Shown here piece by piece: positions 7,777-64,000 of a stretch of DNA of 64,000 nucleotides. Every line of letters starts with the position of its first letter. Within the stretch, counting starts at the first letter, position 1. Source of the stretch: a virus; the IMG/VR virus record IMGVR_UViG_3300044960_000113, positions 64,001-128,000 of that record; one strand, written 5' to 3'. The position numbers were made by a program, and so were the translations under genes. The notes below the pieces were generated by a model. The model worked only from the letters and a program-made list of their open reading frames with translations. It did not search any database and was not told the origin of the DNA.

Positions 7777-7805
7777 ATTATATCTAGTTTCTAGTTAAAA
7801 GTAAA
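7777..7805 (-). promoter_or_regulatory. Early promoter
   Basis: TTTACT-N17-TATAAT. Confidence 0.75.
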
Positions 7806-8408: not shown

Positions 8409-8437
8409 ATTATACACTAATACCTAGGAAAAGTAAA
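8409..8437 (-). promoter_or_regulatory. Early promoter
   Basis: GTTTACT-N17-TATAAT. Confidence 0.75.
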
Positions 8438-18826: not shown

Positions 18827-18841
18827 ATAATTAATTCCTTT

Positions 18842-19975
18842 TTATATATTTTTAATTAATAAATTGATAAAATCAGTACAATATTTTTTAGCATCAAAAT
18901 TAATTGCTTTAAATTGCGCATCAATAATATCTTTCCTTGCACTATTATCATTTATAAGAAGTCTTAATTTATTTTCAGCATCTTCTCTAGAGCTCACATA
19001 TAAAAAATCTATTAAATCTTTATCGTTTTTATAAAATCTTTTTTCTTTATCTAGATCTGAATCGATAAATGTTATACATTGTGCAACTACTGATTCAGAT
19101 GCTCTTTGTGCCATATCAGATATTTCTTCATACCATGGATCTCCTATAACAATATGAGACATAGCACTATTCATCTTTTCTAACATTTTATCATATTTGA
19201 CGACACCTGTAAAATTTGGTGTTCTTAAATTACTTATCAAATTAGGATTAAAATCTTTAAGTTCTATTTTTCCAAACATTTCTACAATAATATCTTCAGG
19301 CCATCCAAAATAATATTTTATCATTTTTTTAATTCTTTTACCACCTCTCATTGTTCCACCATATGAAAGATGAACTGTTGGTGCTTCATTAAATGGTTTT
19401 GGTGTATTTAAAAATGGAAATAATTCAAATGGATAATGTTTTATTCCGCGAATATTAGAAACTTCATATTTACCAAATGAATTTTTAACCTTTTCTGTAT
19501 TAAATGGTTGACAAATATAAAAAATATCATCACGCGTTATTTCTATATCTTTTTTATTATATTTTTTACCCCATTCTTTTTTTTCTACAGAATGCCAAAT
19601 TTGTTTTAATGTTAATTCTGGATCACATAAAATATAAAATATTGGACCTTTAAAATTGTTTATTATATGATAATTTGCTATTTGATATTCATCTTCAGTA
19701 CCACCAAAAAAATTAACATTCCCGTTTAATATACACAATGCATCTAATGATAAATTATTAATTTTATCTTTAAATTCTAAAGTATCAACAATTAAAACGT
19801 TTTCAATCGGTTTTTCTGGCTCATTTTTAATGCGTTTAGATAATGCAATAACTTGAGCACCGCCATTGATCATCATTTTTATTAATGATATAGTTTCTCC
19901 AGTACCACCACTTGTTCCTTGATTATCAAAAGAAATACGTGCACCTAATTTAATTACACCTAATTTTATTGACAT
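18842..19975 (-). CDS. DNA beta-glucosyltransferase-like glycosyltransferase (T4 BGT family)
   Basis: Collinear similarity to T4 BGT as recalled: NGNVNFFGG, YILCD, YPFE, YGGTMRGGKRIKKM, FTG, IVIGD, FID. Confidence 0.8.
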   Translation of the reverse strand: MSIKLGVIKLGARISFDNQGTSGGTGETISLIKMMINGGAQVIALSKRIKNEPEKPIENVLIVDTLEFKDKINNLSLDALCILNGNVNFFGGTEDEYQIANYHIINNFKGPIFYILCDPELTLKQIWHSVEKKEWGKKYNKKDIEITRDDIFYICQPFNTEKVKNSFGKYEVSNIRGIKHYPFELFPFLNTPKPFNEAPTVHLSYGGTMRGGKRIKKMIKYYFGWPEDIIVEMFGKIELKDFNPNLISNLRTPNFTGVVKYDKMLEKMNSAMSHIVIGDPWYEEISDMAQRASESVVAQCITFIDSDLDKEKRFYKNDKDLIDFLYVSSREDAENKLRLLINDNSARKDIIDAQFKAINFDAKKYCTDFINLLIKNI

Positions 19976-31034: not shown

Positions 31035-31441
31035 TTGATTAAATATTGTTTATTTGTATAAACTGAAAATTCTTCAGTTATTGCCCATTTTTTAGTTTTT
31101 ATTATATCAAATAATATTGTTGGATCTTTTTTCTTTGTTATAAAAAGTGTTATTAATTTATTAGTTTTACCAATATTTTTTATTTCTATAAGATCTAATG
31201 TATTTATTCTAATTATATGTGCATCTTTTTTATTTGACAATATTAACCTATTATTATCATCAATTATTATTTTCCATTCATTAATAGACGTTTCACCTAA
31301 AAGTATACTTTTAGCTATAGGGTCAAAAGGTATTTCGAAACTTTTAATGTTTTCACGGTTTAAATCACATATTTTATTGGGCCCAATCTGTAATATTTCA
31401 AATGTTATTTCATCATAATGACAATAAAATTTTTTATCCAC
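31031..31441 (-). CDS. Hypothetical protein
   Basis: Packed ORF. Confidence 0.5.
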   Translation of the reverse strand: MDKKFYCHYDEITFEILQIGPNKICDLNRENIKSFEIPFDPIAKSILLGETSINEWKIIIDDNNRLILSNKKDAHIIRINTLDLIEIKNIGKTNKLITLFITKKKDPTILFDIIKTKKWAITEEFSVYTNKQYLIN

Positions 31442-32906
31442 GATCTAATTTAACCTCATATCCCCATAATTGTTTAAGATAATTTAATGTTTTTCCTGTA
31501 TAATCTTCATTAAGTGGTCTGCCTCTAAATGGAAAATATTTTAAATATAATGTTCTATCACCGATTTTATCATGACCAACAATTTGAATGTTTGGTACAT
31601 AATTAATTCTATTATATGACTCAGATAAATGATTTCTTATTCTTTCATAACCAATTTCATCATGAATTTCTTCTACAAAAAATGCATCGCCTTTTTCATC
31701 ATATTCAATTTCAAATAATTTAAAATCTCTTATAACTTTTGGTGATAACCACTGTTGAATAAATGAATCATCTTTATAATTAGATGCTGCATCTTTAACA
31801 ACATCTTGCCATCTTTGTCCTATTATATTTGGGAACCATTTTTTATCTTCTTCTGTTGGTGATTCACATATTCTTTTTAAATCTCTAAATATAGCAAAAC
31901 CTAATGCATATGGATTTAATCCAGAATACCAAGGTTTCCAATATTCTGGTTGATATATAACATTAGTGTGTGAAATTAAAAAACTTTGCATTGTACCATC
32001 ATCGATTAAACCTTTTTCATAAAGTCTATTGACAATATAATAATGTGTAAATGAAGCAAATCCTTCATTTAAAGTTTTTGTGCTGCCTTGAGGGTAAAAA
32101 TATTGTGATATTTTTCTAACAATACGAATTATTTCTCGTTCCCATGGTTTTAAATTTGGTGCATTTTTTTCTATATAATATAGAATATTTTCTTGTGGTT
32201 CAATTTCTTTAGGATCAATTTTTGAAGTTTTTGAATCATTTTTTTCAATACCATGAATAGTTTTATTTATTACATCGTCATAATATTGAATTTCTTTATC
32301 ATATTTTATTTTTTCTTGCATTAGACGTTCTTCTTCATTTAATCTCTTTTTAGAACGTCTCACGTATGCATCAACACCATGATCACGTAATGAATGACAT
32401 GCATCTAATAATTTTTCAACTTCAGAAATTCCATATTTTTCTTCACATGATGCTATATATTTTTTAGCAAATTCCATATAATCTATAATATATTCAGCAT
32501 TAGTAAAAGTTTTAAACATATAATTATTTTTAAAAACAAAATTATGTCCAAATGCTGCATGAGCTATAACCAACATTTGCATAGTTGCATCATTTTCTTC
32601 CATTAAATAATTAATACATGGGTTAGAATTTATAACCATCTCATATGCAAGCCCCATATTTCCCTTTTTATATTGATTCCAGTTTTTAACAAAATCTTTA
32701 CCAAATGACCAATGATTATAATTGACGGGCAAACCTATAGATGAATATGCATCTAGCATCATTTCAGCAGAAACAATTTCTAGTTGATTTGGGTAATATG
32801 TCAACTCCATTTCTTTTGTTGCTATTTTTTCGCATTCATCATAAATTTTTTTGATTAATGAAATATTCCAATCTTCACCAGATTTAAATAATAATTTTTT
32901 TGGCAT
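31434..32906 (-). CDS. spoVR: SpoVR/YcgB-family protein
   Basis: GLPVNYNHWSFGK, LAYEMVINSNPC, AHAAFGHNFVFKNN, TKTLNEGFASF. Confidence 0.92.
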   Translation of the reverse strand: MPKKLLFKSGEDWNISLIKKIYDECEKIATKEMELTYYPNQLEIVSAEMMLDAYSSIGLPVNYNHWSFGKDFVKNWNQYKKGNMGLAYEMVINSNPCINYLMEENDATMQMLVIAHAAFGHNFVFKNNYMFKTFTNAEYIIDYMEFAKKYIASCEEKYGISEVEKLLDACHSLRDHGVDAYVRRSKKRLNEEERLMQEKIKYDKEIQYYDDVINKTIHGIEKNDSKTSKIDPKEIEPQENILYYIEKNAPNLKPWEREIIRIVRKISQYFYPQGSTKTLNEGFASFTHYYIVNRLYEKGLIDDGTMQSFLISHTNVIYQPEYWKPWYSGLNPYALGFAIFRDLKRICESPTEEDKKWFPNIIGQRWQDVVKDAASNYKDDSFIQQWLSPKVIRDFKLFEIEYDEKGDAFFVEEIHDEIGYERIRNHLSESYNRINYVPNIQIVGHDKIGDRTLYLKYFPFRGRPLNEDYTGKTLNYLKQLWGYEVKLDRG

Positions 32907-32941
32907 TTTTATAAAATTGTATGTAATTTAATTATATATAT

Positions 32942-34249
32942 TTAATTATTTATTTTTTTTTTAAAGAATTTTCTAAATACTTCATAAATTTGAGATTCAT
33001 CATCAATATATTCTGCATTAAAATTTTTTGTTGTATGTAATAAATTTTTATATGCATCCCAAAGAGGATGATTTCCTGCTATTATAGAAATGTATCTATT
33101 ATTTCTAATTTCTAGATATGAAAAATGTTGTATTTTTGGTAATAATTTATTTTTGATTATATGGATACATTCAGCATTATCTTCATGTATATTGTCTCCG
33201 TCAGATGTTTGACAAATATAAATATTTGTTTCTGCTGGGTTATATCGTTTTGATATAATATCATCTACTAATTTAAGTGCAGATGATACGATAGTTCCTC
33301 CACTTTCACGTGTTGTAAAAAATGTATGTTCATCAACTTCATGTGCAGTATCAGTATGACATATATAAACAATGTCTGGGTTTTCATATTTTCTATGCAC
33401 AAATACATAAAATAGAGTAAAGAATTTTCTAGAAATTGTTTTTTCTCTTTCACCCATAGAACCGGAATTGTCCATGATAAAAAATATTACAGCCTTTGAT
33501 TTTTTCTTTGGTTTATAATCATTAACACGAAAACGAAGATCTATTGTATCTAAGAAAGGGATAGATTTAATCTTCTTCGTATATCCCGTGATTTTCTTTT
33601 CTAATTCTGATATTTTTTTGAGATCATTTTCATCTAAATTATCTTTAGTTTTTATATCATCAATTTCATCTTGTGCTTTTTTAAGCAATTTTTTCCATTT
33701 ACTTTTCAATGCAATTCTTCTTAATTTAGATTGTGTTATTGATCTAATAATAGATAACCTATTAGGTGGACCAACATTAGTAAATCCAGCATGTGTTGGA
33801 ATTATTTCAACTATCTGTGTTTGTTGTTTATCTTCTATATTTGGTAACTCTAAATCTTCAAAAAAATAATTTAAAAATTCATCACGTGAAACATTAACAA
33901 TAAAATCATCTTCACTATTACCCTGTCCAGCAGAAGGACCATTACCTATTCCATTTTCTTTTCTATCTTTTAAAATATCAAATTCATCGCCACGGATATA
34001 TTTATAATTACCACTTAATATAACAGGTCCATGAAAAATTGATTTATCATATATAAATCTTGGTTCTTCTATCGTATTTTGAGATATAATTACATTATTA
34101 TTACTATCTAAATCACCAACTTTTTTGCCAATTATATCAATTGTTTTTTTATTAATAAATGACTTAATTCTTCTTAAAAATCTCTGTTTATTTCCAGAAG
34201 ATCTTTTTTTAGCAACATTTCGTCTATCAATAATTGTAAATGTTGACAT
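32942..34249 (-). CDS. yeaH: YeaH/YhbH (DUF444) vWA protein
   Basis: MDNSGSM MIDAS, FTTRESGGTIVSS, QTSDGDN. Confidence 0.9.
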   Translation of the reverse strand: MSTFTIIDRRNVAKKRSSGNKQRFLRRIKSFINKKTIDIIGKKVGDLDSNNNVIISQNTIEEPRFIYDKSIFHGPVILSGNYKYIRGDEFDILKDRKENGIGNGPSAGQGNSEDDFIVNVSRDEFLNYFFEDLELPNIEDKQQTQIVEIIPTHAGFTNVGPPNRLSIIRSITQSKLRRIALKSKWKKLLKKAQDEIDDIKTKDNLDENDLKKISELEKKITGYTKKIKSIPFLDTIDLRFRVNDYKPKKKSKAVIFFIMDNSGSMGEREKTISRKFFTLFYVFVHRKYENPDIVYICHTDTAHEVDEHTFFTTRESGGTIVSSALKLVDDIISKRYNPAETNIYICQTSDGDNIHEDNAECIHIIKNKLLPKIQHFSYLEIRNNRYISIIAGNHPLWDAYKNLLHTTKNFNAEYIDDESQIYEVFRKFFKKKINN

Positions 34250-34256
34250 TTATTTC

Positions 34257-36221
34257 CTATGAAGTACTCTTTTTAATACGTTGATACCATTCAACAAGTA
34301 ATTTTATTTGTCTTTTTGTATATCCACGTGTCATCATACGTTTAACAAAATCATCATGTTTCTTTTGGTCTTCAGATGAACTTTTTGGACCAAAACTAAT
34401 AACTGGCATAATATCTTCAGTTGCCGAAAACATCTTTTGCTCAATTACAGTTTTTATTTTTTCAAAACTATTCCATCTTGGGAATTCACCTTTATTATTT
34501 GCTTTATGTCTTAACACAAAATTGACAATTTCATGTCTAAAATCTTTTGGATTTGAAATTTGTGCCGGTTTTTCAATTTTGTTTAATTCATCGTCTAATG
34601 CTTTGCGATCATACATTTCATGTGTTTCTGGGTGTCTAAAATCAGTATCTGATATCCATGCATCTGCATACATAACATATTTTTCAAATATGTTTTGACC
34701 ATAATCAGAATATGATTCTAAAAATGCAACACGTAATTCTTTTTCTAAATATTCTACATATTTTGGTATCAATAAACTTTTTATAAAATCTATATAAGTA
34801 TTTTGTATATCTTTTGGCAAATGTTCTTGTTCAATAGAATTTTCTAACACATAAAATAAATGAACAGGGTTTGCTGCAGTTTCTTCTGGATCCATATCAA
34901 ATGTTTTAGATAAAACCTTAAAAGCAAATCTTGTTGACATACCAGTCATACCTTCATTTACACCTACTTTTTCTTTTGCATCATCTTTGTATTCTTGTAA
35001 AGGTTTTGCTTTTGGATCAGTGTCCTTAATATTTTCACCATCATAAACTCTCATTTTTGACCAAATAGAAGAATTTTCTGGTTCAACAAGTCTAGTAAGA
35101 ACAGAAAATCTTGCTAAAATTTGTAATGTATCTGGTGCACATGGTGCTTTTTCTAATGCAGAATTATGAAGTAATTTTTCATAAATTTTTACTTCTTCAG
35201 TAACACGTAAACAATATGGTACTTTAATTATAAAGACTCTATCTAAAAATGCTTCATTTGTTTTATCATTTCTAAATTTTTGCCATTCTGATTCATTTGA
35301 ATGCGCAAAAATGATACCTTGGAAAGGAAGTCCAGAAATTGCCTCTGTTCCATTATAAGAATGAGATTGAGTTGCTTCTAAAAGTGGATTCAACGTTTTA
35401 ATATCAGCTTTAAACATTTCAGCAAAATTGACAACTCCACGATTACCACGACATAAACCACCAGAATAACTATATGCGTATGGATGATTAGATGGATAAT
35501 CTTCTAATTTTCTAATATCAATTTTTCCAACTAATGCTGAAATATCTTGATTATTTGGATCTCCTGGTTCAATTTTAGAAATACAAATTTGATGATCTTT
35601 GCTTGGATAAATTTTTTCTACTGTGAATTTTGATATATCACCACCGAATTCTTTTAACTTTTCATTTACCCATGGAGATGGACGAGTAATAATTACTCTA
35701 GATGGAATATTATATTCATTTTCTAGAAATTTTTTAGCTTCTTGATTATTAAATAAACTTAAAGGATCATCAAACACAGGCGATAGTTCATCTTCTGCAC
35801 GTAAAACATATACTGGTTGTGTTTCCATTAATTCTTCAATTCTATCAACAAGTGATGATTTACCTCCACCAACAGGTCCTAAGAAATAAAGAATTTGTTT
35901 ACTTTCTTCCAATCCTTGAGCATAATGTTTTAAGAACGATACTAAATTTTCTATGGTTTCTTCCATTCCATAAAAGTCTGAAAATGCAGGATAAATACGG
36001 ATTTTACGATTTAAAAAAATTCTTCCTAATCTTGGATCTTCAGATGTATCTATTATTTTTGGTTCGCCTATTGCTTTTAATAAACGTTCTGCTGGAGATG
36101 AATATACAGATGGATCTGATTTACATAAATTTAAATATTCTTCTAATGATAATATATTATTAGAAAACATATTATCAAATCGTTGTTTTGATATTTTTGT
36201 TAATGAATCAAACAAACTCAT
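34257..36221 (-). CDS. prkA: PrkA/YeaG AAA+ serine kinase family
   Basis: LGPVGGGKSS, NNQDISALVGK, YSYSGGLCRGNRG, AHSNESEW. Confidence 0.93.
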   Translation of the reverse strand: MSLFDSLTKISKQRFDNMFSNNILSLEEYLNLCKSDPSVYSSPAERLLKAIGEPKIIDTSEDPRLGRIFLNRKIRIYPAFSDFYGMEETIENLVSFLKHYAQGLEESKQILYFLGPVGGGKSSLVDRIEELMETQPVYVLRAEDELSPVFDDPLSLFNNQEAKKFLENEYNIPSRVIITRPSPWVNEKLKEFGGDISKFTVEKIYPSKDHQICISKIEPGDPNNQDISALVGKIDIRKLEDYPSNHPYAYSYSGGLCRGNRGVVNFAEMFKADIKTLNPLLEATQSHSYNGTEAISGLPFQGIIFAHSNESEWQKFRNDKTNEAFLDRVFIIKVPYCLRVTEEVKIYEKLLHNSALEKAPCAPDTLQILARFSVLTRLVEPENSSIWSKMRVYDGENIKDTDPKAKPLQEYKDDAKEKVGVNEGMTGMSTRFAFKVLSKTFDMDPEETAANPVHLFYVLENSIEQEHLPKDIQNTYIDFIKSLLIPKYVEYLEKELRVAFLESYSDYGQNIFEKYVMYADAWISDTDFRHPETHEMYDRKALDDELNKIEKPAQISNPKDFRHEIVNFVLRHKANNKGEFPRWNSFEKIKTVIEQKMFSATEDIMPVISFGPKSSSEDQKKHDDFVKRMMTRGYTKRQIKLLVEWYQRIKKSTS

Positions 36222-41318: not shown

Positions 41319-43460
41319 TTATAAAATATGTTTGGTTTTATTATAATTGTCTTTAATGAATTCAACAAGTTCTTCCAAACGAATAGGTCTAGATACAAGG
41401 TAACCCTGATAATTGTGACATCCTATTTCTTTAAGTTTATCTAACTGTTCATATGTTTCTACTCCTTCAGCAGTAACAGAAATATTCATACGACCAGCTA
41501 AATCTTTTACCATAGTTATAATATTTTGTGACTTATCACTTATTAATATATTATCAACAAAAGATTTATCTATTTTCAAAATATCTATTTTAAATTTTGC
41601 TAGATAGTGTAAACTTGAATAACCTGTTCCAAAATCATCTAAAGCTATTTTTATTCCACTATTTTTAATTTTTTCAATATTATTAGATGCTGAATCAATA
41701 TTATTGATAAGCATTGATTCTGTTATTTCTATACATAGTTTTGTTGGGTCAATGTTTTCTTTTATTATTTTATTTTTTAATTTTGTAACAGTTTCTTCAT
41801 TTAAATCCTTTGCAGAAAAATTCATAGAAAAATATAAATTAGATATATCTACTTTATCTTGAATTAATTTTATATCTCTTATACATCTATCTATAACAAA
41901 ATTTGTTAATTTATGAATCATTCCAGCATCTTCAACAATATGAATAAATAAATTCGGTGTTATAATAGCATTATTTCTTCTATCTTCCCATCTTAATAAG
42001 GCCTCTACACCAACAATTTTATTAGTACTTATTGAAATAATAGGTTGATAAAATAAATGAAGTTCATCATACCCTAGAGCACGTCTAATACCATTTTCTA
42101 TCTTAACTCTATATTCAACTCTAGCATCTATTTCTTCTTTATAAAATTGAAAATTATTTCTACCAGATTCTTTAGCATAATACATTGCTGCATCTGCACA
42201 TTCTAATAATTCATTTATATTTGTTGAATCATCTGGATAAACGCTTATTCCTATAGATGCTGATATATTAATTTTTTTAGTTCCACCATTTAATTCTATA
42301 GGATTTTCTAAACTATTTAGAATTTTAATTGCTATACGCTCTACATATTTAATATCACATATATTATGTATTACTATAACAAACTCATCACCACCTAATC
42401 TAATAATAAGATCATTTTCTCTTACTGTTGATTTTAATATTTTAGCTACATTTTTTAATAAAATATCTCCAGTTGAATGACCATATGTATCATTGATTAA
42501 TTTAAATCTATCTAGATCTAAATAAAATAATGCTATTTTTTTATTATTAGATCTAGCTTCAGCAAATAGATCATTTATTTTTACATTTAATAATTCCCTA
42601 TTTCCTAGTCCTGTCAAAACATCATGATGTGCTAAAAAATTTATTTTTTCTTCTTTTATTTTTAATTCTGTTATATCTGAAAATTCACCAATATAACCAA
42701 TTATTTCATTATTATCATCTTTGACTGTTGATATTATAAGATGTTCTGGGTATATTTCACCAGTCTTTTTCTTATTCCATATTTCACCTTTCCACGTACC
42801 AGTATTTAAAATTGAATTCCACATATTTTTATAAAAATCTGGATTATGAATTCCTGATGATAATATATTAGGTTTTTTACCTAAAACTTCATCTATTGAA
42901 TATCCTGTTATATTACTAAACATCTGATTTACAAATGTTATTTTAATATCGTCATCACATATCATTATTCCATGAGAACTATATTTAAGTGCTGCCAATG
43001 CATAATTAATTTGTTTTTCTTGTTTAAATACTTTTTCCGATAAAAGTTTATAATTTGTTATGTTTTTGCCTGTTCCACGGTATCCATTAAAAATACCTAA
43101 ATCATCTATAATTGGAACACCATTTAATTCAAACCAATATGTTCTATTATATTTGTCTTTAAAAGAATATATAAATCCGTGAAACGGTAATCTTTTATTT
43201 ATTTTATCTTTATATTCATTTAACACATTTATATCTTCAAATCCAAAAGATTCTATTTCACATATTTTTTTGCCTAAAAAATCCTCTTTATCAAAACCAG
43301 TAATAAGAAAAAATTTATCAGATAGATAAGTAAAAACAAGATTTTCATCTTGTTCCCAATACCAATCACAAGAAATGTCTAATAATTCTTGATTTTTTAT
43401 ATATAATTTTAGTATTTCATCTTCAACTATTTTTGAAGATGTGCATATTTCTTCTGACAT
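41319..43460 (-). CDS. PAS-PAS-GGDEF-EAL diguanylate cyclase/phosphodiesterase
   Basis: DWYWEQD PAS, HDVLTGLGNR, DLDRFKLINDTYGH, RLGGDEF, VEALLRW, EITES, DDFGTGYSSL, EGVET. Confidence 0.93.
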   Translation of the reverse strand: MSEEICTSSKIVEDEILKLYIKNQELLDISCDWYWEQDENLVFTYLSDKFFLITGFDKEDFLGKKICEIESFGFEDINVLNEYKDKINKRLPFHGFIYSFKDKYNRTYWFELNGVPIIDDLGIFNGYRGTGKNITNYKLLSEKVFKQEKQINYALAALKYSSHGIMICDDDIKITFVNQMFSNITGYSIDEVLGKKPNILSSGIHNPDFYKNMWNSILNTGTWKGEIWNKKKTGEIYPEHLIISTVKDDNNEIIGYIGEFSDITELKIKEEKINFLAHHDVLTGLGNRELLNVKINDLFAEARSNNKKIALFYLDLDRFKLINDTYGHSTGDILLKNVAKILKSTVRENDLIIRLGGDEFVIVIHNICDIKYVERIAIKILNSLENPIELNGGTKKINISASIGISVYPDDSTNINELLECADAAMYYAKESGRNNFQFYKEEIDARVEYRVKIENGIRRALGYDELHLFYQPIISISTNKIVGVEALLRWEDRRNNAIITPNLFIHIVEDAGMIHKLTNFVIDRCIRDIKLIQDKVDISNLYFSMNFSAKDLNEETVTKLKNKIIKENIDPTKLCIEITESMLINNIDSASNNIEKIKNSGIKIALDDFGTGYSSLHYLAKFKIDILKIDKSFVDNILISDKSQNIITMVKDLAGRMNISVTAEGVETYEQLDKLKEIGCHNYQGYLVSRPIRLEELVEFIKDNYNKTKHIL

Positions 43461-51914: not shown

Positions 51915-53375
51915 TTAAACAGTAATAGCTTTATATCTATCACTATTAAGAACTTCTAACATCATTTCATATGCATCTAATATTTTTCCAGACATTAAAT
52001 TTTTGAAAATGCTTGGGCTACAACCCGAAACGTTTAAGAATCCACGATCATCCATACACATTGGAAATTGTTTGTTTCTTGATGCAACGTTCCAAAATAC
52101 TAGAAGTGGCATTTCATAACCTTTTTCATCCCATTCTTTTTTGATAACATTAAACAATGTATCGCTATTATTATAAGCACAAGCATCAAATTCCATATCT
52201 GAAATAACATAAATCTTTTTAATCATATCTTCAGATTTAATGTTGTTTTTAATTGCAACATTAAGAATAGTATCAAATACTTTCTTAATGTCGGTATTCA
52301 TATCCCATTTTGCACGAGATAAATTTTGGTATTTTTCATAAATATCACGACCCTTAACTTCCTGAAGTTGTGGATTCAATGAAAATGTTAAAAACTTATT
52401 ATGGAATGGTCCAGTGTTTCGTTCTGCTGTATAAATACCAAGAGAAATAGAAACATGCAATGGTAAACCTGACATTGAACCTGAAACGTCACACACACAA
52501 ATACTATTCTCGCCCTTAGCAATATAGTCAGGTTGATTGTTCCACATAGTGTCAAGAGTTTTACGCTCTGATTCAGTAATCATGATATTTGAACAATTAC
52601 GAACAATTTCATATGGGAATTGAGTCGATGCGTTAATTTTTGTTTCACCATTATTGACTTTATTTAAATATTCAATATAACGAACATTATCATGTCTAAT
52701 GAATGCTTTACGATATTTAAGATTTGCTTGTGATGGAACATGTTCATAAACAACTTTATCCCATTGATTAGATGATAAAGTACGTTCTAACACATCAATT
52801 TTTTTACGAAGTAATGAAAGACCACGACGATATGTTTTTGGTGAAATTCCAAAAGCTTCACGAGTTTTACGTGCAAGTTCTCTCGATTTTGGTGATGATG
52901 TGTTTTCTGATTTTAACCATTTAGCTAAAATAGATGGTTTATCACTTTCTAAATCTTTGATAAATTGTTCACGCATCAATTTTAATGCGTCACTTTCAAC
53001 ACTAGTACCAACTAACGCATATAAGTCATCCCATCTTCCATATTCTGGAATAAGATGAAGATTTCTACGAACTGTGTGTGGAGCAATATTAGCTAGATCG
53101 CGTAAAAACACTCTAAATGTTTCACGCTCACCTTGTCCACCACGAACATCGCGGAAATAAAATAAGGTTTTGACTGTTAGTAATGGATCTTCATTATAAG
53201 CATCTAAGAAAAGATCGTGTGCATTTTCAGCACCTCTTCCGGTTCTAAGTGCACCAGCTTGGCTAAATAAATCTAAAACTCGTGAATTTGTAGATTTATT
53301 TGAAATTGCACCATTTTCTGTGAATGCAGTTTTATTGAAATGATTTTCTAAAGCTTGAGCGATTGTGACTGTCAT
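51915..53375 (-). CDS. TROVE-like/vWA protein (DUF2828 family, Ro60-related)
   Basis: TENGA, RDVRGGQGER, YGRWDDL, AKWL, QFPYEI, CDVSGSM, ISDMEFD, FWNV; ATG at 53375 with GGAGG. Confidence 0.85.
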   Translation of the reverse strand: MTVTIAQALENHFNKTAFTENGAISNKSTNSRVLDLFSQAGALRTGRGAENAHDLFLDAYNEDPLLTVKTLFYFRDVRGGQGERETFRVFLRDLANIAPHTVRRNLHLIPEYGRWDDLYALVGTSVESDALKLMREQFIKDLESDKPSILAKWLKSENTSSPKSRELARKTREAFGISPKTYRRGLSLLRKKIDVLERTLSSNQWDKVVYEHVPSQANLKYRKAFIRHDNVRYIEYLNKVNNGETKINASTQFPYEIVRNCSNIMITESERKTLDTMWNNQPDYIAKGENSICVCDVSGSMSGLPLHVSISLGIYTAERNTGPFHNKFLTFSLNPQLQEVKGRDIYEKYQNLSRAKWDMNTDIKKVFDTILNVAIKNNIKSEDMIKKIYVISDMEFDACAYNNSDTLFNVIKKEWDEKGYEMPLLVFWNVASRNKQFPMCMDDRGFLNVSGCSPSIFKNLMSGKILDAYEMMLEVLNSDRYKAITV

Positions 53376-53386
53376 AATGACCTCCA

Positions 53387-53426
53387 AGACATATTGTTTA
53401 AATAAAAAATTTTGCTGTTAATGTCT
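53387..53426 (-). ncRNA. ACAGCAA stem element 1 (abuts the RBS of the TROVE gene)
   Basis: AGACAT-TAACAGCAA...-ATGTCT followed immediately by TGGAGG. Confidence 0.7.
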
Positions 53427-53444
53427 TTTTTGAGAAGAATTAAC

Positions 53445-53493
53445 TAGACACATTTTAAGGTTATCATCCTCAAATAGTTGCTGTTAGTGTCTA
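53445..53493 (-). ncRNA. ACAGCAA stem element 2
   Basis: TAGACAC-TAACAGCAA...GAGG/CCTT hairpin...-GTGTCTA. Confidence 0.7.
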
Positions 53494-53502
53494 TATTTTT
53501 AT

Positions 53503-53531
53503 ATTATATATAAAGAAGTTTTTAAAGTAAA
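53503..53531 (-). promoter_or_regulatory. Promoter of the TROVE leader
   Basis: TTTACT-N17-TATAAT. Confidence 0.75.
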
Positions 53532-53552
53532 AGGTTAAAATATCCTAAATGT

Positions 53553-53738
53553 TTATTCTTCTTCGTCTTTAATTTTGATAGATTTTTTCTTACTTTCCTG
53601 TTCAGCAACTGCCATACCAATAATTAGACGCTTAATTTCACCACGTCGATGTGGGTCAATAATATTATCAAAATAACATTTGTAATGACCTGGAAGACGA
53701 AAGTTTGGCCCGGTAATTTTTTTACGTGGTTCTGACAT
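53553..53738 (-). CDS. Hypothetical protein
   Basis: ORF with AGGAG RBS. Confidence 0.6.
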   Translation of the reverse strand: MSEPRKKITGPNFRLPGHYKCYFDNIIDPHRRGEIKRLIIGMAVAEQESKKKSIKIKDEEE

Positions 53739-53978
53739 TAATTTTCTCCTGCTTATTAAAATTTTATGAAAATATTTTTAAATTTTAATTAATTTATTGA
53801 GAAAATTTTCTCTATAAAATCTATTTTGTAATTGTGAAAAGATATTTCTATTTTCTTTTGATAATAAGAGAAAACTAATATTGCGAAGACGATTAAATTC
53901 ATCTTTTAAAGCTAATTCATCCTCTTTAATGTTTTGTCGATTAATTAACATTATCTCTCAATATTTATAAAGTGAAAA

Positions 53979-54052
53979 TGGTTGCGATCGCCGGTTCTGC
54001 CCACGGCTCTCGTGGTTATGAGCCACGCGTGACACTAGTTCACTTCCTCGCA
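53979..54052 (-). tRNA. Degenerate tRNA(CAU), fMet-like
   Basis: CGTGG CT CAT AA CCACG arm; ...CGCAACCA end; two acceptor mismatches and an aberrant T-loop. Confidence 0.6.
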
Positions 54053-54056
54053 ATTT

Positions 54057-54151
54057 TGGTAGTCCCCCACGGTTACGATCCGTGCCGTTCCAGCCAATCT
54101 AGCCGGTCTCGCGAGTTTATAAGACTCGCCCGCTCACCAGAGCTGAGGACT
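54057..54151 (-). tRNA. Atypical tRNA with UAU anticodon, long variable arm and 4-nt D-loop
   Basis: AGTCCTC/GGGGACT A CCA; GCTC-TGGT-GAGC; GCGAGT-CTTATAA-ACTCGC; CCGGCT/GGCTGG variable stem; T-loop ATCGTAA. Confidence 0.75.
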
Positions 54152-54161
54152 ATCTTTTAAC

Positions 54162-54267
54162 AAGACACAAAACCGAAGGATCGGTTCCACTCCTCTCGTT
54201 ATAATCTACGATCGCCGAGATTGTCCAAACGGACACTCCATTATAAAAAATTTGCTGTATGTGTCTT
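54162..54267 (-). ncRNA. ACAGCAA stem element 3: 106-nt multi-hairpin RNA (Y-RNA-like candidate)
   Basis: AAGACAC-ATACAGCAA...three hairpins (TGTCC/GGACA, TCTCG/CGAGA, AACCGA/TCGGTT)...GTGTCTT. Confidence 0.7.
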
Positions 54268-54281
54268 TTTATTATTTATTA

Positions 54282-54389
54282 ATTATATATCAAATTTTAA
54301 TAAAAGTAAACAAAAATATCCTAAAAATTAAATATTTTGTTATATGAATTTTTATTTAAAATTATATATTAAATTTTATCAAAAATAAA
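54282..54389 (-). promoter_or_regulatory. Tandem promoters of the RNA cassette
   Basis: TTTACT-N17-TATAAT (54282-54310) and TTTATT-N17-TATAAT (54361-54389), each preceded by TTAGGATATTTTTG. Confidence 0.7.
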
Positions 54390-54407
54390 CAAAAATATCC
54401 TAATTTT

Positions 54408-55253
54408 TTAATCTAATAAAAACGTAGATAAATTAACATTCGGGTTCCACCATTCCGGTAAAAATCTTTTTGCTGGAACACCATTATCTAAAGAATCAAA
54501 AAAATCATTTATATATTGTTTAAGTTCATCACTATTTATTATGAGTGATTCATGGTCAAAATTTTGTTTTTGAAATAATGCGTGTTTAATATTTTCATTT
54601 GGATTGAACATATCCCTTGCTAAAATTTCAAAATCATTTATTGATTGTTCAATATTATCTTCATAACTTAAATTTAAAATTGTTCTATCTTGAAGATGTA
54701 ATTTTAATATATCAAAAATAACAATTCGTTGTAAACACCCATTAACTAAAATTCTATCATCTGGTAAAAACATAAAATTTTTATTTTTATTATTATTATT
54801 TTCTTCTAAAGATAGCGACCATTTTTTAGTTTTAAATCCAACAAGATATGAAGCAACTGATTTAAATATATTTTTACGATTCAAAAAAATAAATTGGTTG
54901 TTTTCATTTTTTAATAAACGTTTTGCAAAATCTGGGCATCTCATAATAAAATCACCGAAAAATTTTAACATAAAAGGTCTTCCAGGTAAATTATTTAACA
55001 ATTTTTCTCTTCTTAAAAATTCTTTATATTTATCTTCATATGTTTTTAAAAGTTTATACATTTTACCATCATGGTGATTTATACATATTGGTATATGTGT
55101 TTTTTGATCTTCTATAACTTCAGTGCCTAAATTTAAAAATTCAAATAAACTTATATAATTTGGTAAATTTTGTTTAATTATTTGATATGTAACAGTTGAT
55201 CCTGATCTAGGATAACAAACTAAAATAATATTTTTATTTTTATCAAACTCCAT
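54408..55253 (-). CDS. Sulfotransferase-family protein (Stf0-like)
   Basis: PAPS-binding loop CYPRSGST; LNRKNIFKSVAS; LSYED. Confidence 0.65.
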   Translation of the reverse strand: MEFDKNKNIILVCYPRSGSTVTYQIIKQNLPNYISLFEFLNLGTEVIEDQKTHIPICINHHDGKMYKLLKTYEDKYKEFLRREKLLNNLPGRPFMLKFFGDFIMRCPDFAKRLLKNENNQFIFLNRKNIFKSVASYLVGFKTKKWSLSLEENNNNKNKNFMFLPDDRILVNGCLQRIVIFDILKLHLQDRTILNLSYEDNIEQSINDFEILARDMFNPNENIKHALFQKQNFDHESLIINSDELKQYINDFFDSLDNGVPAKRFLPEWWNPNVNLSTFLLD

Positions 55254-58781: not shown

Positions 58782-59978
58782 TTATAACATGCAATTTTTT
58801 AATAATATAAATCCATTCCTACCACCGAATCCAAATGAATTTTTGAGAGCATATCTAATCTGTTTTTCTTTAGGTTTATGCATTACGAAATCTAGGTTAG
58901 CGTCTAATGGGTCGTTTAAGTTCATCGTATGTGGGATTAATGAATGTTTCATAGCCATAATAGTATATATTAATTCAACAATGTTTGATGAATGAATACA
59001 ATGTCCTATATGTCCTTTATTACTACTTATTGATACACCTGGAAAATATTTTTCCATTAAACTAGCTTCTATATCATCACCAACTGGAGTAGATGTTGCA
59101 TGTGCATTTATATAATCTATTTGTCCATTAAAATTTTTCAAACATCTTTCTAAAGCAATTCTTGAACTTTTCATTTCTTTATCTGGTGCTGTTAAATTAT
59201 TTCCATCATTTTGAAAACCTAAACCAATAATTTCTGCATAAATTTTAGCATTTCTTTTTTCAGCATGTTCTAATGTTTCTATAATTAAACATGCATGTCC
59301 ATTAGCAATCATAAAACCATCTCTATTTTTATCAAATGGTCTAGATATTTCTTTTTTAGATAATGCACCTAAATTTTCAAACCATGTAATATCTAAATAG
59401 TTACAACCATTACTTGATGTTCCAACTATAGTACATTGAAGATTATTTTCACTCATTATCTTCAAAGCATAATCTATACTATAAAAACCCGTTGAACATG
59501 CAGCAGATAATGTTAAAGACTGACCTGTTAAATTATATCTAGTTTGTATACAATTTGAAATAAAATCTGAACTATAATTTAATGCTATGAAAGGATTTAA
59601 TCGCCCAAAGGTATTATTAATATAATCTAAATAATCTAATGCTATATTTCTTGTAGAAGAACTAAAAACAACTGGAACTTCTTTACCGTGAATATTTATG
59701 TTTGCATCTTTAATAGCATGTTCAACAACACCTAAAGCAATTTTAGAATTATTAGTTAATCTTCTTAACTCTTTTTCAGTATATCCATATTTTGTTAAAT
59801 CTGGAACTATTTGTTTTTCTAAAAAACAGAATTTTGTTTTTATGTTTTTATTTTTTAATGAGTCTATATTAGACGTGGATGTTAAGTTTTGATTATTTGT
59901 AATAATATTATTAAAACATTCACTGGGATCAGATCCTAATGAATCATGGATACCAATACCTGTTATTACAAATCTCAT
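58782..59978 (-). CDS. fabF: Beta-ketoacyl-ACP synthase II
   Basis: Catalytic Cys-His-His: SAACSTG, NAHATST, KGHIGH; RPFDKNRDGF; KNSFGFGG. Confidence 0.88.
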   Translation of the reverse strand: MRFVITGIGIHDSLGSDPSECFNNIITNNQNLTSTSNIDSLKNKNIKTKFCFLEKQIVPDLTKYGYTEKELRRLTNNSKIALGVVEHAIKDANINIHGKEVPVVFSSSTRNIALDYLDYINNTFGRLNPFIALNYSSDFISNCIQTRYNLTGQSLTLSAACSTGFYSIDYALKIMSENNLQCTIVGTSSNGCNYLDITWFENLGALSKKEISRPFDKNRDGFMIANGHACLIIETLEHAEKRNAKIYAEIIGLGFQNDGNNLTAPDKEMKSSRIALERCLKNFNGQIDYINAHATSTPVGDDIEASLMEKYFPGVSISSNKGHIGHCIHSSNIVELIYTIMAMKHSLIPHTMNLNDPLDANLDFVMHKPKEKQIRYALKNSFGFGGRNGFILLKNCML

Positions 59979-59983
59979 TATTT

Positions 59984-60298
59984 TTAAACAGTTTCTGTCG
60001 TTACATAAGTAGTAATATTATGTTGTGCAGTATAAGTATCAATAGCATTTTGTAAATCATTAATTAATGTTTGATTTTGACTTAAAAATTCATTTCTATA
60101 TGACTCATCAGCCCAAATATAAGTAATAGTTGATGTTACATCATCAATGTGATTAGTTTCAACACCTATAAATTTATCTGGTGGTAATTGATTTAATAAA
60201 GAAATCAAATTATTATGTAAATTTGAAATTGTATCACTATTTATTAAACCTGGATCTGTTGGTGATTGTCTTATGATTGTTCTAGTAACTTTAAACAT
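59984..60298 (-). CDS. Hypothetical protein
   Basis: ORF with GGAG RBS. Confidence 0.55.
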   Translation of the reverse strand: MFKVTRTIIRQSPTDPGLINSDTISNLHNNLISLLNQLPPDKFIGVETNHIDDVTSTITYIWADESYRNEFLSQNQTLINDLQNAIDTYTAQHNITTYVTTETV

Positions 60299-60352
60299 AG
60301 TATTTCTCCTTTAAATAAAATAATGTAATAAAATATTTCTACTGTATATTTA

Positions 60353-60754
60353 TTATTTATAATTAAATGTTGACCATAAATCTTTATCTGTTTGTTTTGG
60401 TAATTCTTTTTTATTTGCTTTTGCTAATATCAATAATGCATTAAATACATCCTTAGGAAATCCATTTCTATTTCCTCTATCATCAATAATTAATTTATTA
60501 AAATATGAATCTAATTCAATACTACCCCACGTAAGTTCAATTTTTTCAAAAATACGAGGATATTTATCCTTAATTAAATCAGCGGCATTAAATACTTCTT
60601 CTAAATCATTAGGTGGTTTTTTAAATAATGTCACTGGTTCAATAGGTGTTTCATCAGATGGAATAATTTCTGGAAATTCAGAAGTTGGTATTACCTCATT
60701 ACCCCAAATAAACTCACCCTTTTTTTCAAATATCATATTATTATAGATCTCCAA
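60353..60754 (-). CDS. Conserved hypothetical protein
   Basis: YPRIFEKIELTWG...LIIDDRGNRNGFP motif resembles a small proteobacterial family. Confidence 0.55.
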   Translation of the reverse strand: MEIYNNMIFEKKGEFIWGNEVIPTSEFPEIIPSDETPIEPVTLFKKPPNDLEEVFNAADLIKDKYPRIFEKIELTWGSIELDSYFNKLIIDDRGNRNGFPKDVFNALLILAKANKKELPKQTDKDLWSTFNYK

Positions 60755-60766
60755 TTATATATTATT

Positions 60767-60987
60767 ATTGATTAACCGATAACCAGGATTCTGTCTAGGA
60801 GTATAATTTATCTATGCCACAACCCGATCTCATAGGATGGAACTTACCTCGATCTATTTGTGTTGCACACTCAATCTTTCGATTTATTAATGGTACAAAC
60901 GACTATTAGTCTCCCATTAGTTCCAAGTGTGTCCTGAGTTTCCTCAACGGGTTTTAAAAACCCACCGCTATACTCTAGTTAATCAAT
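60767..60987 (-). ncRNA. rnpB: Compact RNase P RNA (about 221 nt)
   Basis: CR-I GAGGAAACTCAGGA pairs with CR-V ACAGAATCCTGGTTAT (P4 with bulged U and compensatory changes); CR-II GTGCAACACAAA; CR-IV TAGATAAAT; P1 ATTGATTAACT/GGTTAATCAAT; P2 GAGTATA/TATACTC. Confidence 0.88.
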
Positions 60988-60994
60988 TCATTTG

Positions 60995-61067
60995 CTCCTC
61001 GGCCTGGGTTCGAACCAGGGACACACGGATTAACAGTCCGTCGCTCTACCAGCTGAGCTACCGAGGA
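60995..61067 (-). tRNA. tRNA-Asn(GUU), CCA not encoded
   Basis: TCCTCGG...ACGGA CT GTT AA TCCGT...CCGAGGA G followed by CAA. Confidence 0.93.
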
Positions 61068-61071
61068 TCTT

Positions 61072-61147
61072 TGGTGCTGCCTGTCGGACTTGAACTGACA
61101 ACCTACTGATTACAAATCAGTTGCTCTACCAATTGAGCTAAGGCAGC
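61072..61147 (-). tRNA. tRNA-Thr(UGU)
   Basis: Canonical cloverleaf with CCA. Confidence 0.95.
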
Positions 61148-61222
61148 ATTATATATTTATTAATCTTTATTCTTAACAGAGAATATTATATCATAGTTTT
61201 ATTAAAAAGTAAATACGTTTTA

Positions 61223-61510
61223 CTATGATAACACTTTAGATTTTGTGTAAATATCTTTGAAATCAAATCTAACTTTTTTATATGCTAAAAGATGTCCGTC
61301 TTCTGAAATTGGTAAATTATTATTTTCCATAAAATCCCATAATTCATTGACAGATGAAGAACTTGGATTTTGTATTAGCAACTCTAAAAATTTTACGTAT
61401 CGCGATACGTCAAAACCCATTTTTAATATTGATAACATTTTTTATTAAAGAACCGTGAATTTCTTTTCCTTTGTAAAAAATTTTATCATCTCTAATTATA
61501 TCCTCTAAAT
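61223..61510 (-). pseudogene. rIIB-like fragment, frameshifted and truncated
   Basis: IFYKGKEIHGSLIK in one frame, then MLSILKMGFD...QNPS..SVNELWDF...LPISEDGHLLAYKKV in another; stops early. Confidence 0.7.
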
Positions 61511-61591
61511 ATAGGAAAAACAATGAAAATATTATATCATAAAATCAATAAAAAGTGTTAATTATTTTTTATAATATTAATCAATAATATT

Positions 61592-63310
61592 TTATCCACA
61601 TTTACTAGAACCACATTGCATACATTTATGACATCCTTCTTGATATACAACCTTTTCACTTCCACATTCTGTACATTTTGCACCTTCAACTATTTCACCA
61701 TCTTTAATAAATGATGCTAGAAATTTTTTAATCTGGAAAATAAAACTTCCAACATAAACATCTTTAATGCTATCAAGTGTTGCAACAATATTTTTGATTA
61801 ATACTCCATGTCTAAGATTTAAAGAAATCATTCTAGCAATTTTAGAAGCATTATCATTTGATTTAATTTTTTCTAACACTTTATCTATATGCTCTTGTTT
61901 AATATTTTTTCTTTTTGCTAATTCTGTCAATTTATCAATAGCATCTAATGTTATAACATTTTTTTCATGATGATTTGTATGAACAAATAATGCAAATGGT
62001 CTAGTGCGTGTTTCATTCCAAACAACAGTTAGATACCATTTTCTTCCTTCAGCACGTAAAGTTTTCATTGATGCTTCTGCAGTTTCTGGAAGAATTACAT
62101 CATCTAAAATAATTTCCTCATCATAACCATTTTTATCTGTTTCTTTTGAAGATAGTACAGCTGTCATTGTACCTGTTCTGTATGTTGTTACACCTTTAAC
62201 ATATCCAGATTTATAAACATCTAAATAAACATTTTTAAAATCATCAAATGGATATTCATGTGGAACATTGACAGTTTTTGACATAGCACTGTCAACCCAT
62301 CTTGCAAATCCAACTAAATCATTAACATGATCTTCAACAGTCAATCCATTCAATGCAGTAACAGCCCATGGTGCTTTTGGATTCCATTCATTTTTTTCTT
62401 TTAAATATCTAACACCATAATCAGAACACGTAACCTCTTTAGTCAATCCTCTATTTTTATCGATTTTATAAACTATACCATTATGTTTTCCTTTAAGAAT
62501 TTCTTCATCACCTTCTTTTGTGAATTTAAAAATTTTTGTTTCATGCCACTCACCATCGTACCATTTAGGTGTTTCTTCAATCATATCTTCTGGAATAGAT
62601 GGAACAATAACCGTTCTTATATATTCTGGCATAAATATTGGTTCTAATCCACTAGATACAACATTTGCTAATATAGAAGTATTTCCTGTTGGTTGTATCG
62701 ATAATAATGAACTATTCCTAATTCCAACAGTTTTTAATTTTTCCATATATGATTTTGATAGACCTAATGATTGAATAAATGGATTTTCAGAATGTTTTTG
62801 TGGGTCACATAATTTAAACATTCCTTTTTCTTCTGCTAAATCAATAGATGACATATATGCACTTCTAGCTATGGTAGACATAACCTTTTCACGCAATTCA
62901 TGTGATTTATCAGAACCAAATTTTATTTTCAACATAAATAATGATGATGCCCAACCAAGAATACCAATACCAATGCGACGCTTATTTTTCATTGAATATT
63001 CATATTCAGGAAGTGGTGCATTAGATAAAGTATTAACATTATCTAAGAAACGAACAAGATAACCTGTATATTTTGCTATTTTTTTATAATCAAAATCTGT
63101 ACAATCTTCATTAATAAATTGAGTTAAATTTAATGAAGATAAACAACAAATACCACCTGGAGCCAACATTTGTTCACCACAATTATGAACTAAAATTCCA
63201 TTTGCAAAAAAATTATGATTTTTGGTAGTAGTTAAATCAAAAACATCTTGATTTTCAGTTATTTTTATAGATTTAATTTTTAATTTGCGGAGGTTGTTGT
63301 TTGTTTCCAT
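61592..63310 (-). CDS. nrdJ: Split-intein C-part (43 aa) plus class II ribonucleotide reductase C-extein
   Basis: NFFANGILVHN|CGEQ; RRIGIG, SIQPTGNTS, SSGLEP, AMSKTVN, KGVTTYR; C-terminal zinc ribbon. Confidence 0.9.
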   Translation of the reverse strand: METNNNLRKLKIKSIKITENQDVFDLTTTKNHNFFANGILVHNCGEQMLAPGGICCLSSLNLTQFINEDCTDFDYKKIAKYTGYLVRFLDNVNTLSNAPLPEYEYSMKNKRRIGIGILGWASSLFMLKIKFGSDKSHELREKVMSTIARSAYMSSIDLAEEKGMFKLCDPQKHSENPFIQSLGLSKSYMEKLKTVGIRNSSLLSIQPTGNTSILANVVSSGLEPIFMPEYIRTVIVPSIPEDMIEETPKWYDGEWHETKIFKFTKEGDEEILKGKHNGIVYKIDKNRGLTKEVTCSDYGVRYLKEKNEWNPKAPWAVTALNGLTVEDHVNDLVGFARWVDSAMSKTVNVPHEYPFDDFKNVYLDVYKSGYVKGVTTYRTGTMTAVLSSKETDKNGYDEEIILDDVILPETAEASMKTLRAEGRKWYLTVVWNETRTRPFALFVHTNHHEKNVITLDAIDKLTELAKRKNIKQEHIDKVLEKIKSNDNASKIARMISLNLRHGVLIKNIVATLDSIKDVYVGSFIFQIKKFLASFIKDGEIVEGAKCTECGSEKVVYQEGCHKCMQCGSSKCG

Positions 63311-63425
63311 ATAGCTTTTTCCTTTTTGTAACTTTCACAATAATCATTAATGTTGTCAATTATAATAATTGGTATATCTTGTTCTTTTTTTAACATCTAT
63401 GGAAGTTATAAACCTATGTGACATT

Positions 63426-64000
63426 TTAAATACCTATTAAAATATCGTCTGTTGTTAAGTCAGATGCATTAACATACCCACGATTTTCAGTATAGACTTT
63501 ATGATCTGGTGTTAATTTAATGACTGTAGAATCTTCTAATTCTAATTCGATAACATTAGCATTATTACGTGTTTTGTCGACAAAAGTTATATCTTCAAAT
63601 TCTGTATTTTGTGTGTCAATATTCATTGTTAATACTTTGAAGCTTTCACCAGATTTAAACCTTTTGGCCAACTCAAAAAATGATATTTCACCCTTATCTG
63701 TCGTGACTAAAGTATCACCAGTTAAACATGGATTTGTCGAATAAATTGTTTCAGCATAATTTAATGGATTAAAATAATTTGCACGATCTAAAAATAAAAC
63801 ACCTGGCTCTGCGCGATTATATGTTGATTCCATAATTAAATTCCATAGCCAAGTTGCTGATACTGTTTGATACACTATTGTTGGATACCCAGCTGATTCC
63901 CATTGCTTAATGTCACCTTTCCATTCTTTTTTATATTTTGGATGACTTGTGTCTGGGAAACGTAAATTCCATTTATCAATTTCTTCTTTTTCTTTAATTA
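63426..64000 (-). CDS. nrdJ: Ribonucleotide reductase N-extein (5' end outside window) plus split-intein N-part (100 aa)
   Basis: Frame open to the window edge; AEPGVLFLD...STNP|CLTGDT (Cys1 at 63728), block B LTPDH. Confidence 0.9.

Follow-up and report, generated by a model that had tools for sequence, protein, structure and literature searches.

A gene for a 221-nt reduced RNase P RNA lies on the minus strand at 60767-60987 of the window, the 64,000-nt stretch of DNA analysed here, which corresponds to bases 64001-128000 of a 184,280-bp IMG/VR virus record (IMGVR_UViG_3300044960_000113). RNase P RNA trims newly made tRNAs and is regarded as a cellular housekeeping ribozyme. Judged by its sequence and its alignment to known families, the gene encodes an RNA that derives from bacterial type A RNase P RNA and is reduced to the catalytic domain. 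It probably encodes an active, trans-acting ribozyme subunit that is made from a phage tRNA operon and borrows the RnpA protein of the host.

The G+C content of the RNA is 38%, compared with 26.9% for the genome. In Rfam E-value mode, the bacterial type A model (RNaseP_bact_a, RF00010) matches positions 60764-60986 (-) of the window over model positions 1-367, with a score of 64.3 bits (E = 3.1e-19 in the window and 1.9e-20 in the whole record). RF00010 is the best model of Rfam clan CL00002 for this RNA in a cmscan comparison, and it finds a single RNase P RNA copy in the 184,280 bp of the record. The score is below the Rfam curated gathering threshold of 100 bits because about 140 model positions, those of the specificity domain (S-domain) and P18, are deleted; the S-domain positions (15+15+110) are matched by 54 nt and the 24 positions of P18 by 0 nt. 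A scan of the window at Rfam gathering thresholds reports tRNAs alone and no RNase P RNA. The first-pass annotation had described the locus as a phage-encoded miniature RNase P RNA and had named the Rfam RNase P models as a check, and the end-to-end match bears the description out, although below the cut-off (64.3 bits, E of 3e-19).

The window RNA contains P1-P7, P15-P17, the joining regions J3/4, J5/15, J18/2, and J2/4, the bulged U of P4, and the GGU of L15. All of its elements are on the minus strand. P1 pairs 60977-60987 with 60767-60777 over 11 bp, P2 pairs 60969-60975 with 60799-60805 over 7 bp, and P3 is a 9-bp hairpin with a 3-nt loop at 60946-60966. The RF00010 alignment places CR-I at 60932-60945, where J3/4 (GAGGA) is followed by the 5' strand of P4, AACUCAGGA. 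In P4 this strand (AAC[U]CAGGA, 60940-60932, with U60937 bulged) pairs with UCCUGGUU at 60788-60781, and it differs from the consensus AAGUCCGGG/CCCGGCUU by three compensated changes. J3/4 GAGGAAA and J2/4 ACAGAA, both seen directly in the window RNA, flank P4; the latter is part of J2/4 (CR-V, CUAGACAGAA) at 60789-60798. The equivalent of J18/2 (CR-IV, AUAGAUAAAU) is J15/2 at 60806-60815, which contains AGAUAAAU and has no P18 before it. The initial description of a fully compensated P4, of P1 and P2, and of CR-IV is therefore accurate in each case.

P5 (60931-60925 with 60872-60866) encloses 52 nt in place of the S-domain (element 60866-60931), at the point where the E. coli RNA has the whole P7-P14 domain. 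In the RF00010 alignment, P8-P14 with CR-II and CR-III, as well as P18, are absent from the window RNA. CR-II is J11/12 in the specificity domain, and the GNRA loop of P18 docks into P8 in type A RNA. The CR-II that had been read into this sequence is not there, as J11/12 is deleted with the domain and only the 52 nt remain inside P5. The P6 pseudoknot joins GGAAC (60924-60920) to GUUCC (60843-60839) in the loop of P17; in a per-sequence test it extends to UGGAACU/AGUUCCA (7 bp), which was equalled in 0 of 200 shuffles. P7 (60919-60914 with 60893-60888) is capped by a 3-bp apical hairpin at 60911-60901. The P15-P16-P17 module (60818-60862; helices 11-13 of the covariation test) consists of P15 (60862-60860 with 60820-60818), P16 (60854-60851 with 60829-60826), and P17 (60849-60847 with 60836-60834), and the L15 GGU, the motif that binds the 3' CCA of tRNA, is at 60824-60822. 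J5/15, the region equivalent to E. coli A248, reads CAA at 60863-60865. A thermodynamic centroid fold of the window RNA reproduces P1, P2, P3, P5, P7, P15, and P16; its minimum-free-energy z-score is modest (-1.68).

The stub that stands in place of the S-domain (60913-60894) forms a conserved asymmetric internal loop, in which GGAG and CGNUUNNNAC flank a small hairpin that often has a GAAA loop. This internal loop may be a candidate T-loop-like module that replaces S-domain contacts. An AAUC-GAAA-GAUU hairpin at 60884-60873 is a tentative candidate for a conserved helix: only 4-6 sequences align there, and the CGAAAG of the nearest relatives is not in a stem.

Relatives of the RNA were collected from viral contigs with a pattern of GAGGAAANTCNGG and ACAGAANCCNG separated by a gap of 90-180 nt, which yielded 52 loci. 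R1, a covariance model made from the window RNA alone, recovers 44 of these 52, 39 of them at E < 1e-4. A metagenome scan with the P4 variant of the window RNA added 26 members, all of which (26/26) match R1. Relatives on viral, metagenomic, and some cellular contigs number about 80. Members of the family are 153-267 nt long (median, 221), and 20-90 nt replace the S-domain. The stretch from P15 to P2, the expected site of P18, is at most 15 nt long in 39/39 viral copies; five of the 39 may have a P18-like insert that is aligned into the P15-P17 module instead.

Among the 39 viral copies, standard pairs occupy 92.2% of the cells, compared with 60.5% after shuffling of the columns and 31-45% with slid partners, in an alignment of 39 rows that was fitted to R1 and leans towards nested helices. 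Changes on both sides occur in 62 of the 70 pairs of this alignment. Across P1, P2, P3, P5, and P15-P17, 89-98% of cells are paired and nearly every pair has both-side changes; in P1 all 11 pairs covary (92.6% paired), as do 7/7 in P2 and 9/9 in P3. P4 and P6 are independent tests because pseudoknots cannot be included in a covariance model. P4, which is outside the model, is paired in 99% of cells in the 39 viral copies, and three of its eight positions covary (GC 21/CG 16; AU 24/CG 7/GC 6; AU 27/GC 4/CG 3). The common P6 pairing of the relatives in the per-sequence test is UGCUUA/UGAGCA, with compensated variants UAGAGU/ACUCUA, GAAGC/GCUUC, UGUUUA/UGAACA, and CCGCUUG/UAAGCGG. Outside the search pattern, J5/15 GCAA is kept in 36-37 of the 39 copies, the L15 GGU in 30-33, and the AGAU..AU of J18/2 in 31-39; J3/4 and J2/4 were fixed in the pattern, and their invariance among relatives carries no weight. 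The catalytic and substrate-contact nucleotides are under purifying selection.

Within this family the window RNA is a typical yet fairly isolated member. Its nearest relative (locus L016) scores 119 bits, and the carrier phages have distant proteins alone in common with the window phage. Closer relatives were sought in metagenomes with a subfamily-specific pattern, which gave no match. By itself, the RNA has no BLASTN match in 50,697 phage records, and with its flanks included only the tRNAs match. Routine annotation would miss this RNA, because BLASTN finds nothing in these 50,697 deposited phage genomes.

Compared with type A RNA (E. coli M1 RNA, rnpB; RF00010), the phage RNA has in common P1-P7, P15-P17, the P4 and P6 pseudoknots, and the bulged U of P4, together with J3/4 GAGGAAA, J5/15 GCAA, the L15 GGU, J18/2 AGAUNAAU, and J2/4 ACAGAA. 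It differs in its length (221 nt, against about 350-400), in the loss of P8-P14 (CR-II, CR-III) and P18, in the three compensated changes of P4, and in being encoded in a phage tRNA operon of a genome that has no rnpA. Three defining features of the curated RF00010 family, namely the score cut-off, the S-domain, and P18, are missing from it. These comparisons indicate descent from a bacterial type A RNase P RNA, and the RNA is best called a new, reduced variant of that type.

The closest experimental parallels are engineered. The C-domain of the E. coli RNA alone cleaves substrates, provided that it has a P6-like pairing; with the S-domain removed, it can also do without P18 (PMC5839562). Such C-domain-only constructs are active with and without protein, and are much weaker in vitro than the full-size RNA (PMC5839562). 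The phage RNA resembles the Eco CP RPR of that study in having a catalytic domain without an S-domain and a P6-type pairing, and its lack of P18 agrees with the finding that P18 can be spared when P8 is absent. In contrast to the constructs, it is natural and under purifying selection, and it keeps P7 with the small hairpin and internal loop (GGAG...CGNUUNNNAC), which the constructs lack. Activity is also known from archaeal T-type RNAs, which lack most of the S-domain (PMC7191817). With the T-type RNAs of Thermoproteaceae such as Pyrobaculum (PMC7191817, PMC3579882), S-domain loss is the sole point in common; those RNAs belong to an archaeal lineage, work with archaeal proteins, and are the only RNase P RNA of the cell, whereas the phage RNA is of bacterial type A. 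Plastid and mitochondrial rnpB RNAs (PMC4264200) are likewise bacterial-type, shortened, and AT-rich. However, the organellar RNAs are vertical remnants, several of which are defective alone, whereas the phage RNAs are a mobile family tied to tRNA arrays (PMC4264200 for the organellar RNAs). Full-text literature searches found no published phage or viral RNase P RNA, and the RNase P RNA classes used in annotation tools (A, B, C, M, P, and T) include no viral one (PMC7191817).

The gene is the third of a compact unit on the minus strand. tRNA-Thr(UGU) at 61072-61147 (72.5 bits with Rfam, also called by ARAGORN) is the first gene and has an encoded CCA; tRNA-Asn(GUU) at 60994-61067 (67.7 bits with Rfam) follows, with no encoded CCA. 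The distance from tRNA-Asn to the start of the RNA, given before as 7 nt, is 7 nt by the Rfam end of the tRNA (60995) and 6 nt by the ARAGORN end (60994). A promoter-like TTTACT-N17-TATAAT sequence lies 37 nt upstream of tRNA-Thr, at 61185-61213 (-). This motif has five copies in the window (7777-7805, 8409-8437, 53503-53531, 54282-54310, and 61185-61213, all on the minus, coding strand), compared with 0.36 expected, and 0 of 100 shuffles reach five; it is probably a phage promoter type that serves the RNA and early or middle genes. No terminator-like site was found in 59900-63500. Because the promoter-like motif stands upstream of tRNA-Thr and no terminator-like site follows, co-transcription of the RNA with tRNA-Thr and tRNA-Asn is likely. 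An ORF of 133 aa immediately downstream (60353-60754, minus strand), which has no Pfam or PHROG family, is probably on the same transcript; it has no relative in the viral contigs and is not linked to the RNA elsewhere among phages. Further out, the locus is flanked by a gene for a beta-ketoacyl synthase (FabF/FabB-like) and one for a ribonucleotide reductase (58782-59978 and 61592-63310, respectively, both on the minus strand), and the ribonucleotide reductase ORF opens with the C-terminal splicing block of an intein.

Linkage to tRNA genes extends to the family, as 26 of the 39 viral copies have a same-strand tRNA gene within 100 nt, often at 0-10 nt. In the record itself, ARAGORN finds 32 tRNAs in 35 kb, of which 26 reach the Rfam tRNA threshold and six miss it. 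These tRNAs and a permuted tmRNA are all on the same strand as the RNA, within about 37 kb. The permuted (two-piece) tmRNA is outside the window, at 152531-152757 (-) of the record (L142:4531-4757), scores 92.7 bits with RF04321, and has the ARAGORN-predicted tag AANDEYFGEMRLAA. As tmRNAs of this permuted kind typically belong to Alphaproteobacteria and some cyanobacteria, it may be a hint at the host.

One of the ARAGORN calls, a 'tRNA-Ile(UAU)' of 95 nt at 54057-54151 (-), is 59% GC and has a tRNA-like structure. The Rfam tRNA model misses it even at E <= 1, and a YrlA/tRNA search of 53300-54500 was empty. The tRNA-like RNA has a promoter-like motif at 54310-54282, and a Ro60/TROVE-like gene (51915-53387; DUF2828/DUF7788, phrog_850 'RNA-binding protein') lies about 0.7 kb downstream of it; the RNA may partner the Ro-like protein in the manner of a Y RNA. 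In one other carrier (L009), a Ro-like homolog and the mini RNase P RNA are about 1 kb apart.

A protein partner encoded by the phage was not found. As had been reported for the window, no rnpA (PF00825) is present there, and the same is true of the whole 184,280-bp record and of the 36 other viral carrier records, seven of which are at least 90% complete and three of which have terminal repeats. The ORFs within 4 kb of the 39 viral copies include no widespread family that would be a linked protein cofactor; the recurrent neighbours are HNH and GIY-YIG homing endonucleases or genes of one sublineage. Close relatives of the RNA occur in genomes that have rnpA. Since there is no phage rnpA and no recurrent protein neighbour, the simplest inference is that the phage RNA uses the RnpA of its host.

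Taken together, these observations point to a pathway in which a phage promoter would drive a transcript of tRNA-Thr, tRNA-Asn, and the mini RNA, whose 5' end would be freed by 3' processing of tRNA-Asn. The RNA would fold into a P1-P7 and P15-P17 core with the P4 and P6 pseudoknots and, because the phage has no RnpA of its own, would bind that of the host. The complex would then cut the 5' leaders in trans from about 30 phage pre-tRNAs during infection, and probably would process the permuted tmRNA precursor as well; tmRNA precursors are also RNase P substrates. Its grip on the substrate would be through the acceptor stem and the 3' CCA (L15 GGU) and not through the elbow formed by the T-loop and D-loop. 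A working enzyme requires the CCA-binding GGU and the bulged U in P4. That the GGU, the P4 bulge, and the adenines of both J5/15 and J3/4 are conserved speaks for a working active site, one that would bind the acceptor ends of pre-tRNAs. The reading as a trans-acting ribozyme follows from parts that suffice in the laboratory and from the conserved active-site and substrate-contact nucleotides, and we judge it somewhat more probable than not. Of the claim that the phage carries its own tRNA-processing ribozyme, a conserved reduced homolog in a viral record, in a tRNA unit and without rnpA, holds up; its suggested tuning to atypical tRNAs has no support, as the adjacent tRNAs are canonical by their Rfam scores and the tRNA-Ile(UAU) call is unsupported by Rfam.

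The same conserved core could serve a different end if the mini RNA titrated host RnpA away from M1 RNA and so stopped or reprogrammed tRNA maturation in the host, with its own catalysis secondary or absent. The 37 records without a phage rnpA imply competition for the host protein, the regions in contact with that protein (P2-P3, J18/2, J2/4, and P15) are all kept, and the S-domain, which raises the affinity for pre-tRNA, is lost. However, a pure decoy would have no need of the L15 GGU, J5/15 GCAA, the P4 bulged U, and the J3/4 adenines, all of which are conserved. Tight placement in tRNA arrays suits processing better, and the roughly 30 tRNA genes of the phage call for RNase P activity and not for its loss; we consider a decoy unlikely. 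In type A RNase P, recognition of the T-loop depends on the S-domain, and the removal of that recognition is also what could direct the RNA to non-canonical substrates, such as odd phage tRNAs, tRNA-like RNAs, tmRNA, or phage and host mRNAs, with canonical pre-tRNAs left to the host enzyme. Such a role comes near the earlier idea of tuning, and candidate substrates are at hand in the six ARAGORN tRNAs below the Rfam threshold, the GC-rich tRNA-like RNA at 54057-54151, and the permuted tmRNA. Yet the tRNAs that flank the window copy, and most of those beside the RNA in other phages, are ordinary, and no sequence feature ties the RNA to particular substrates, which leaves an altered specificity rather improbable.

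Two further explanations would deny the RNA a role in the phage, or deny the phage itself. If the RNA were the decaying remains of an rnpB captured from a host, or no more than a structured spacer within the tRNA transcript, this would account for a score under the Rfam cut-off and for the loss of half of the molecule. Random decay is, however, hard to reconcile with deletions as precise as these (the S-domain and P18 lost, P6 kept) or with a reduced architecture that is common to about 80 divergent sequences and in which each helix, as well as the two pseudoknots, has compensatory changes, and an inert relic is very unlikely. The contig could also be cellular, for instance from a reduced AT-rich bacterium with the mini RNA as its sole RNase P RNA. 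A search of the 184-kb record yielded no capsid or sheath gene and no clear terminase (Terminase_6N at 15.8 bits; no Gp23 and no sheath match), and in some Gemmataceae metagenome-assembled genomes (MAGs) and one CPR MAG a reduced RNA of this family is the only RNase P RNA match. Because structural genes were not found, what marks the record (linear, about 52% complete by CheckV) as viral is how IMG/VR classifies it, together with its phage-type genes for replication and modification. Among its genes are those for a UvsX-like recombinase and an intein-bearing ribonucleotide reductase, along with homing endonucleases and a T4 beta-glucosyltransferase-like gene, but neither rRNA nor rnpA was found; its genes are almost all on the minus strand, with the 32 tRNAs packed in 35 kb, and relatives of the RNA occur in complete viral genomes with terminal repeats. 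A cellular origin of the contig is accordingly highly improbable, and we retain the reading as a ribozyme subunit of a phage.

Other genes in the window are of interest in their own right. A CofD-like gene adjoins the T4 beta-glucosyltransferase-like gene at 16943-19975 (-), which suggests a DNA hypermodification cluster. A complete PrkA(YeaG)-DUF444(YeaH)-SpoVR operon and a PAS-GGDEF-EAL protein are encoded at 31434-36221 (-) and 41319-43460 (-), suggesting genes for the takeover of host signalling. The closest deposited matches of the PrkA operon are in huge phages of 343-642 kb (uncultured phages and Ralstonia phage RsoM2USA) and in the 31-kb record of Enterobacter phage LAU1.

Reduced RNAs of the same family are also present on cellular contigs. 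The same pattern has 80-83 matches in cellular assemblies, 19 of which pass a family covariance model built from 14 sequences (R2). Those of the Gemmataceae/Planctomycetia and Shapirobacteria MAGs described below are about 210-230 nt long and have chromosomal-looking contexts, and rnpA is present in 5/5 cellular genomes tested. In Achromobacter anxifer LMG 26857 (L117, L176, L177), a 224-nt copy is located in a 32-tRNA array on a 486,889-bp contig of an isolate assembly (NZ_CAHLAR010000005.1), and the genome also has a full-size rnpB. This copy adjoins genes for a phage-type (T4-type) topoisomerase II, an RNA ligase, a PNK-like ATPase, and a thymidylate synthase, and the contig with the array may be a jumbo phage or a phage-like episome. 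A. anxifer is a culturable system for the mini RNA. In six MAGs of Gemmataceae/Planctomycetia (L071, L109, L102, L064, L080, and others), no RNase P RNA other than the mini RNA is matched; full-size RNase P RNA is present in 33 of 41 sampled Gemmataceae genomes. One Gemmataceae copy is flanked by typical planctomycete chromosomal genes, and the Gemmataceae RNA has the P6 and P7-loop motifs common to the phage family. A MAG of Candidatus Shapirobacteria (CPR; L083) has only a 210-nt form, between miaA/ychF-type genes. An RNase P RNA without an S-domain may therefore be used by cells, with the reservation that in MAGs the full-size gene may be missed.

On a broader and more tentative view, which we regard as possible though doubtful, large phages would have their own streamlined RNase P lineage that forms a hybrid with host RnpA and does without the elbow check. 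This lineage would have moved between viruses and cells and become, as an RNA of about 210-220 nt, the sole RNase P RNA in a subclade of Gemmataceae and in the Shapirobacteria MAG. If that is true, an S-domain-less type A RNA can be the only RNase P RNA of a cell. For the phages, if the proposed function is true, the ribozyme would join tRNAs and tmRNA among the translation-related genes of large phages, and its presence would account for unannotated GC-rich gaps in phage tRNA arrays that fall below standard Rfam thresholds. By what means a virus shares, or steals, the protein subunit of its host would become a question as well. The family would further be an evolutionary test of the minimal core that was defined in the laboratory, with P6 kept and P18 and the S-domain lost.
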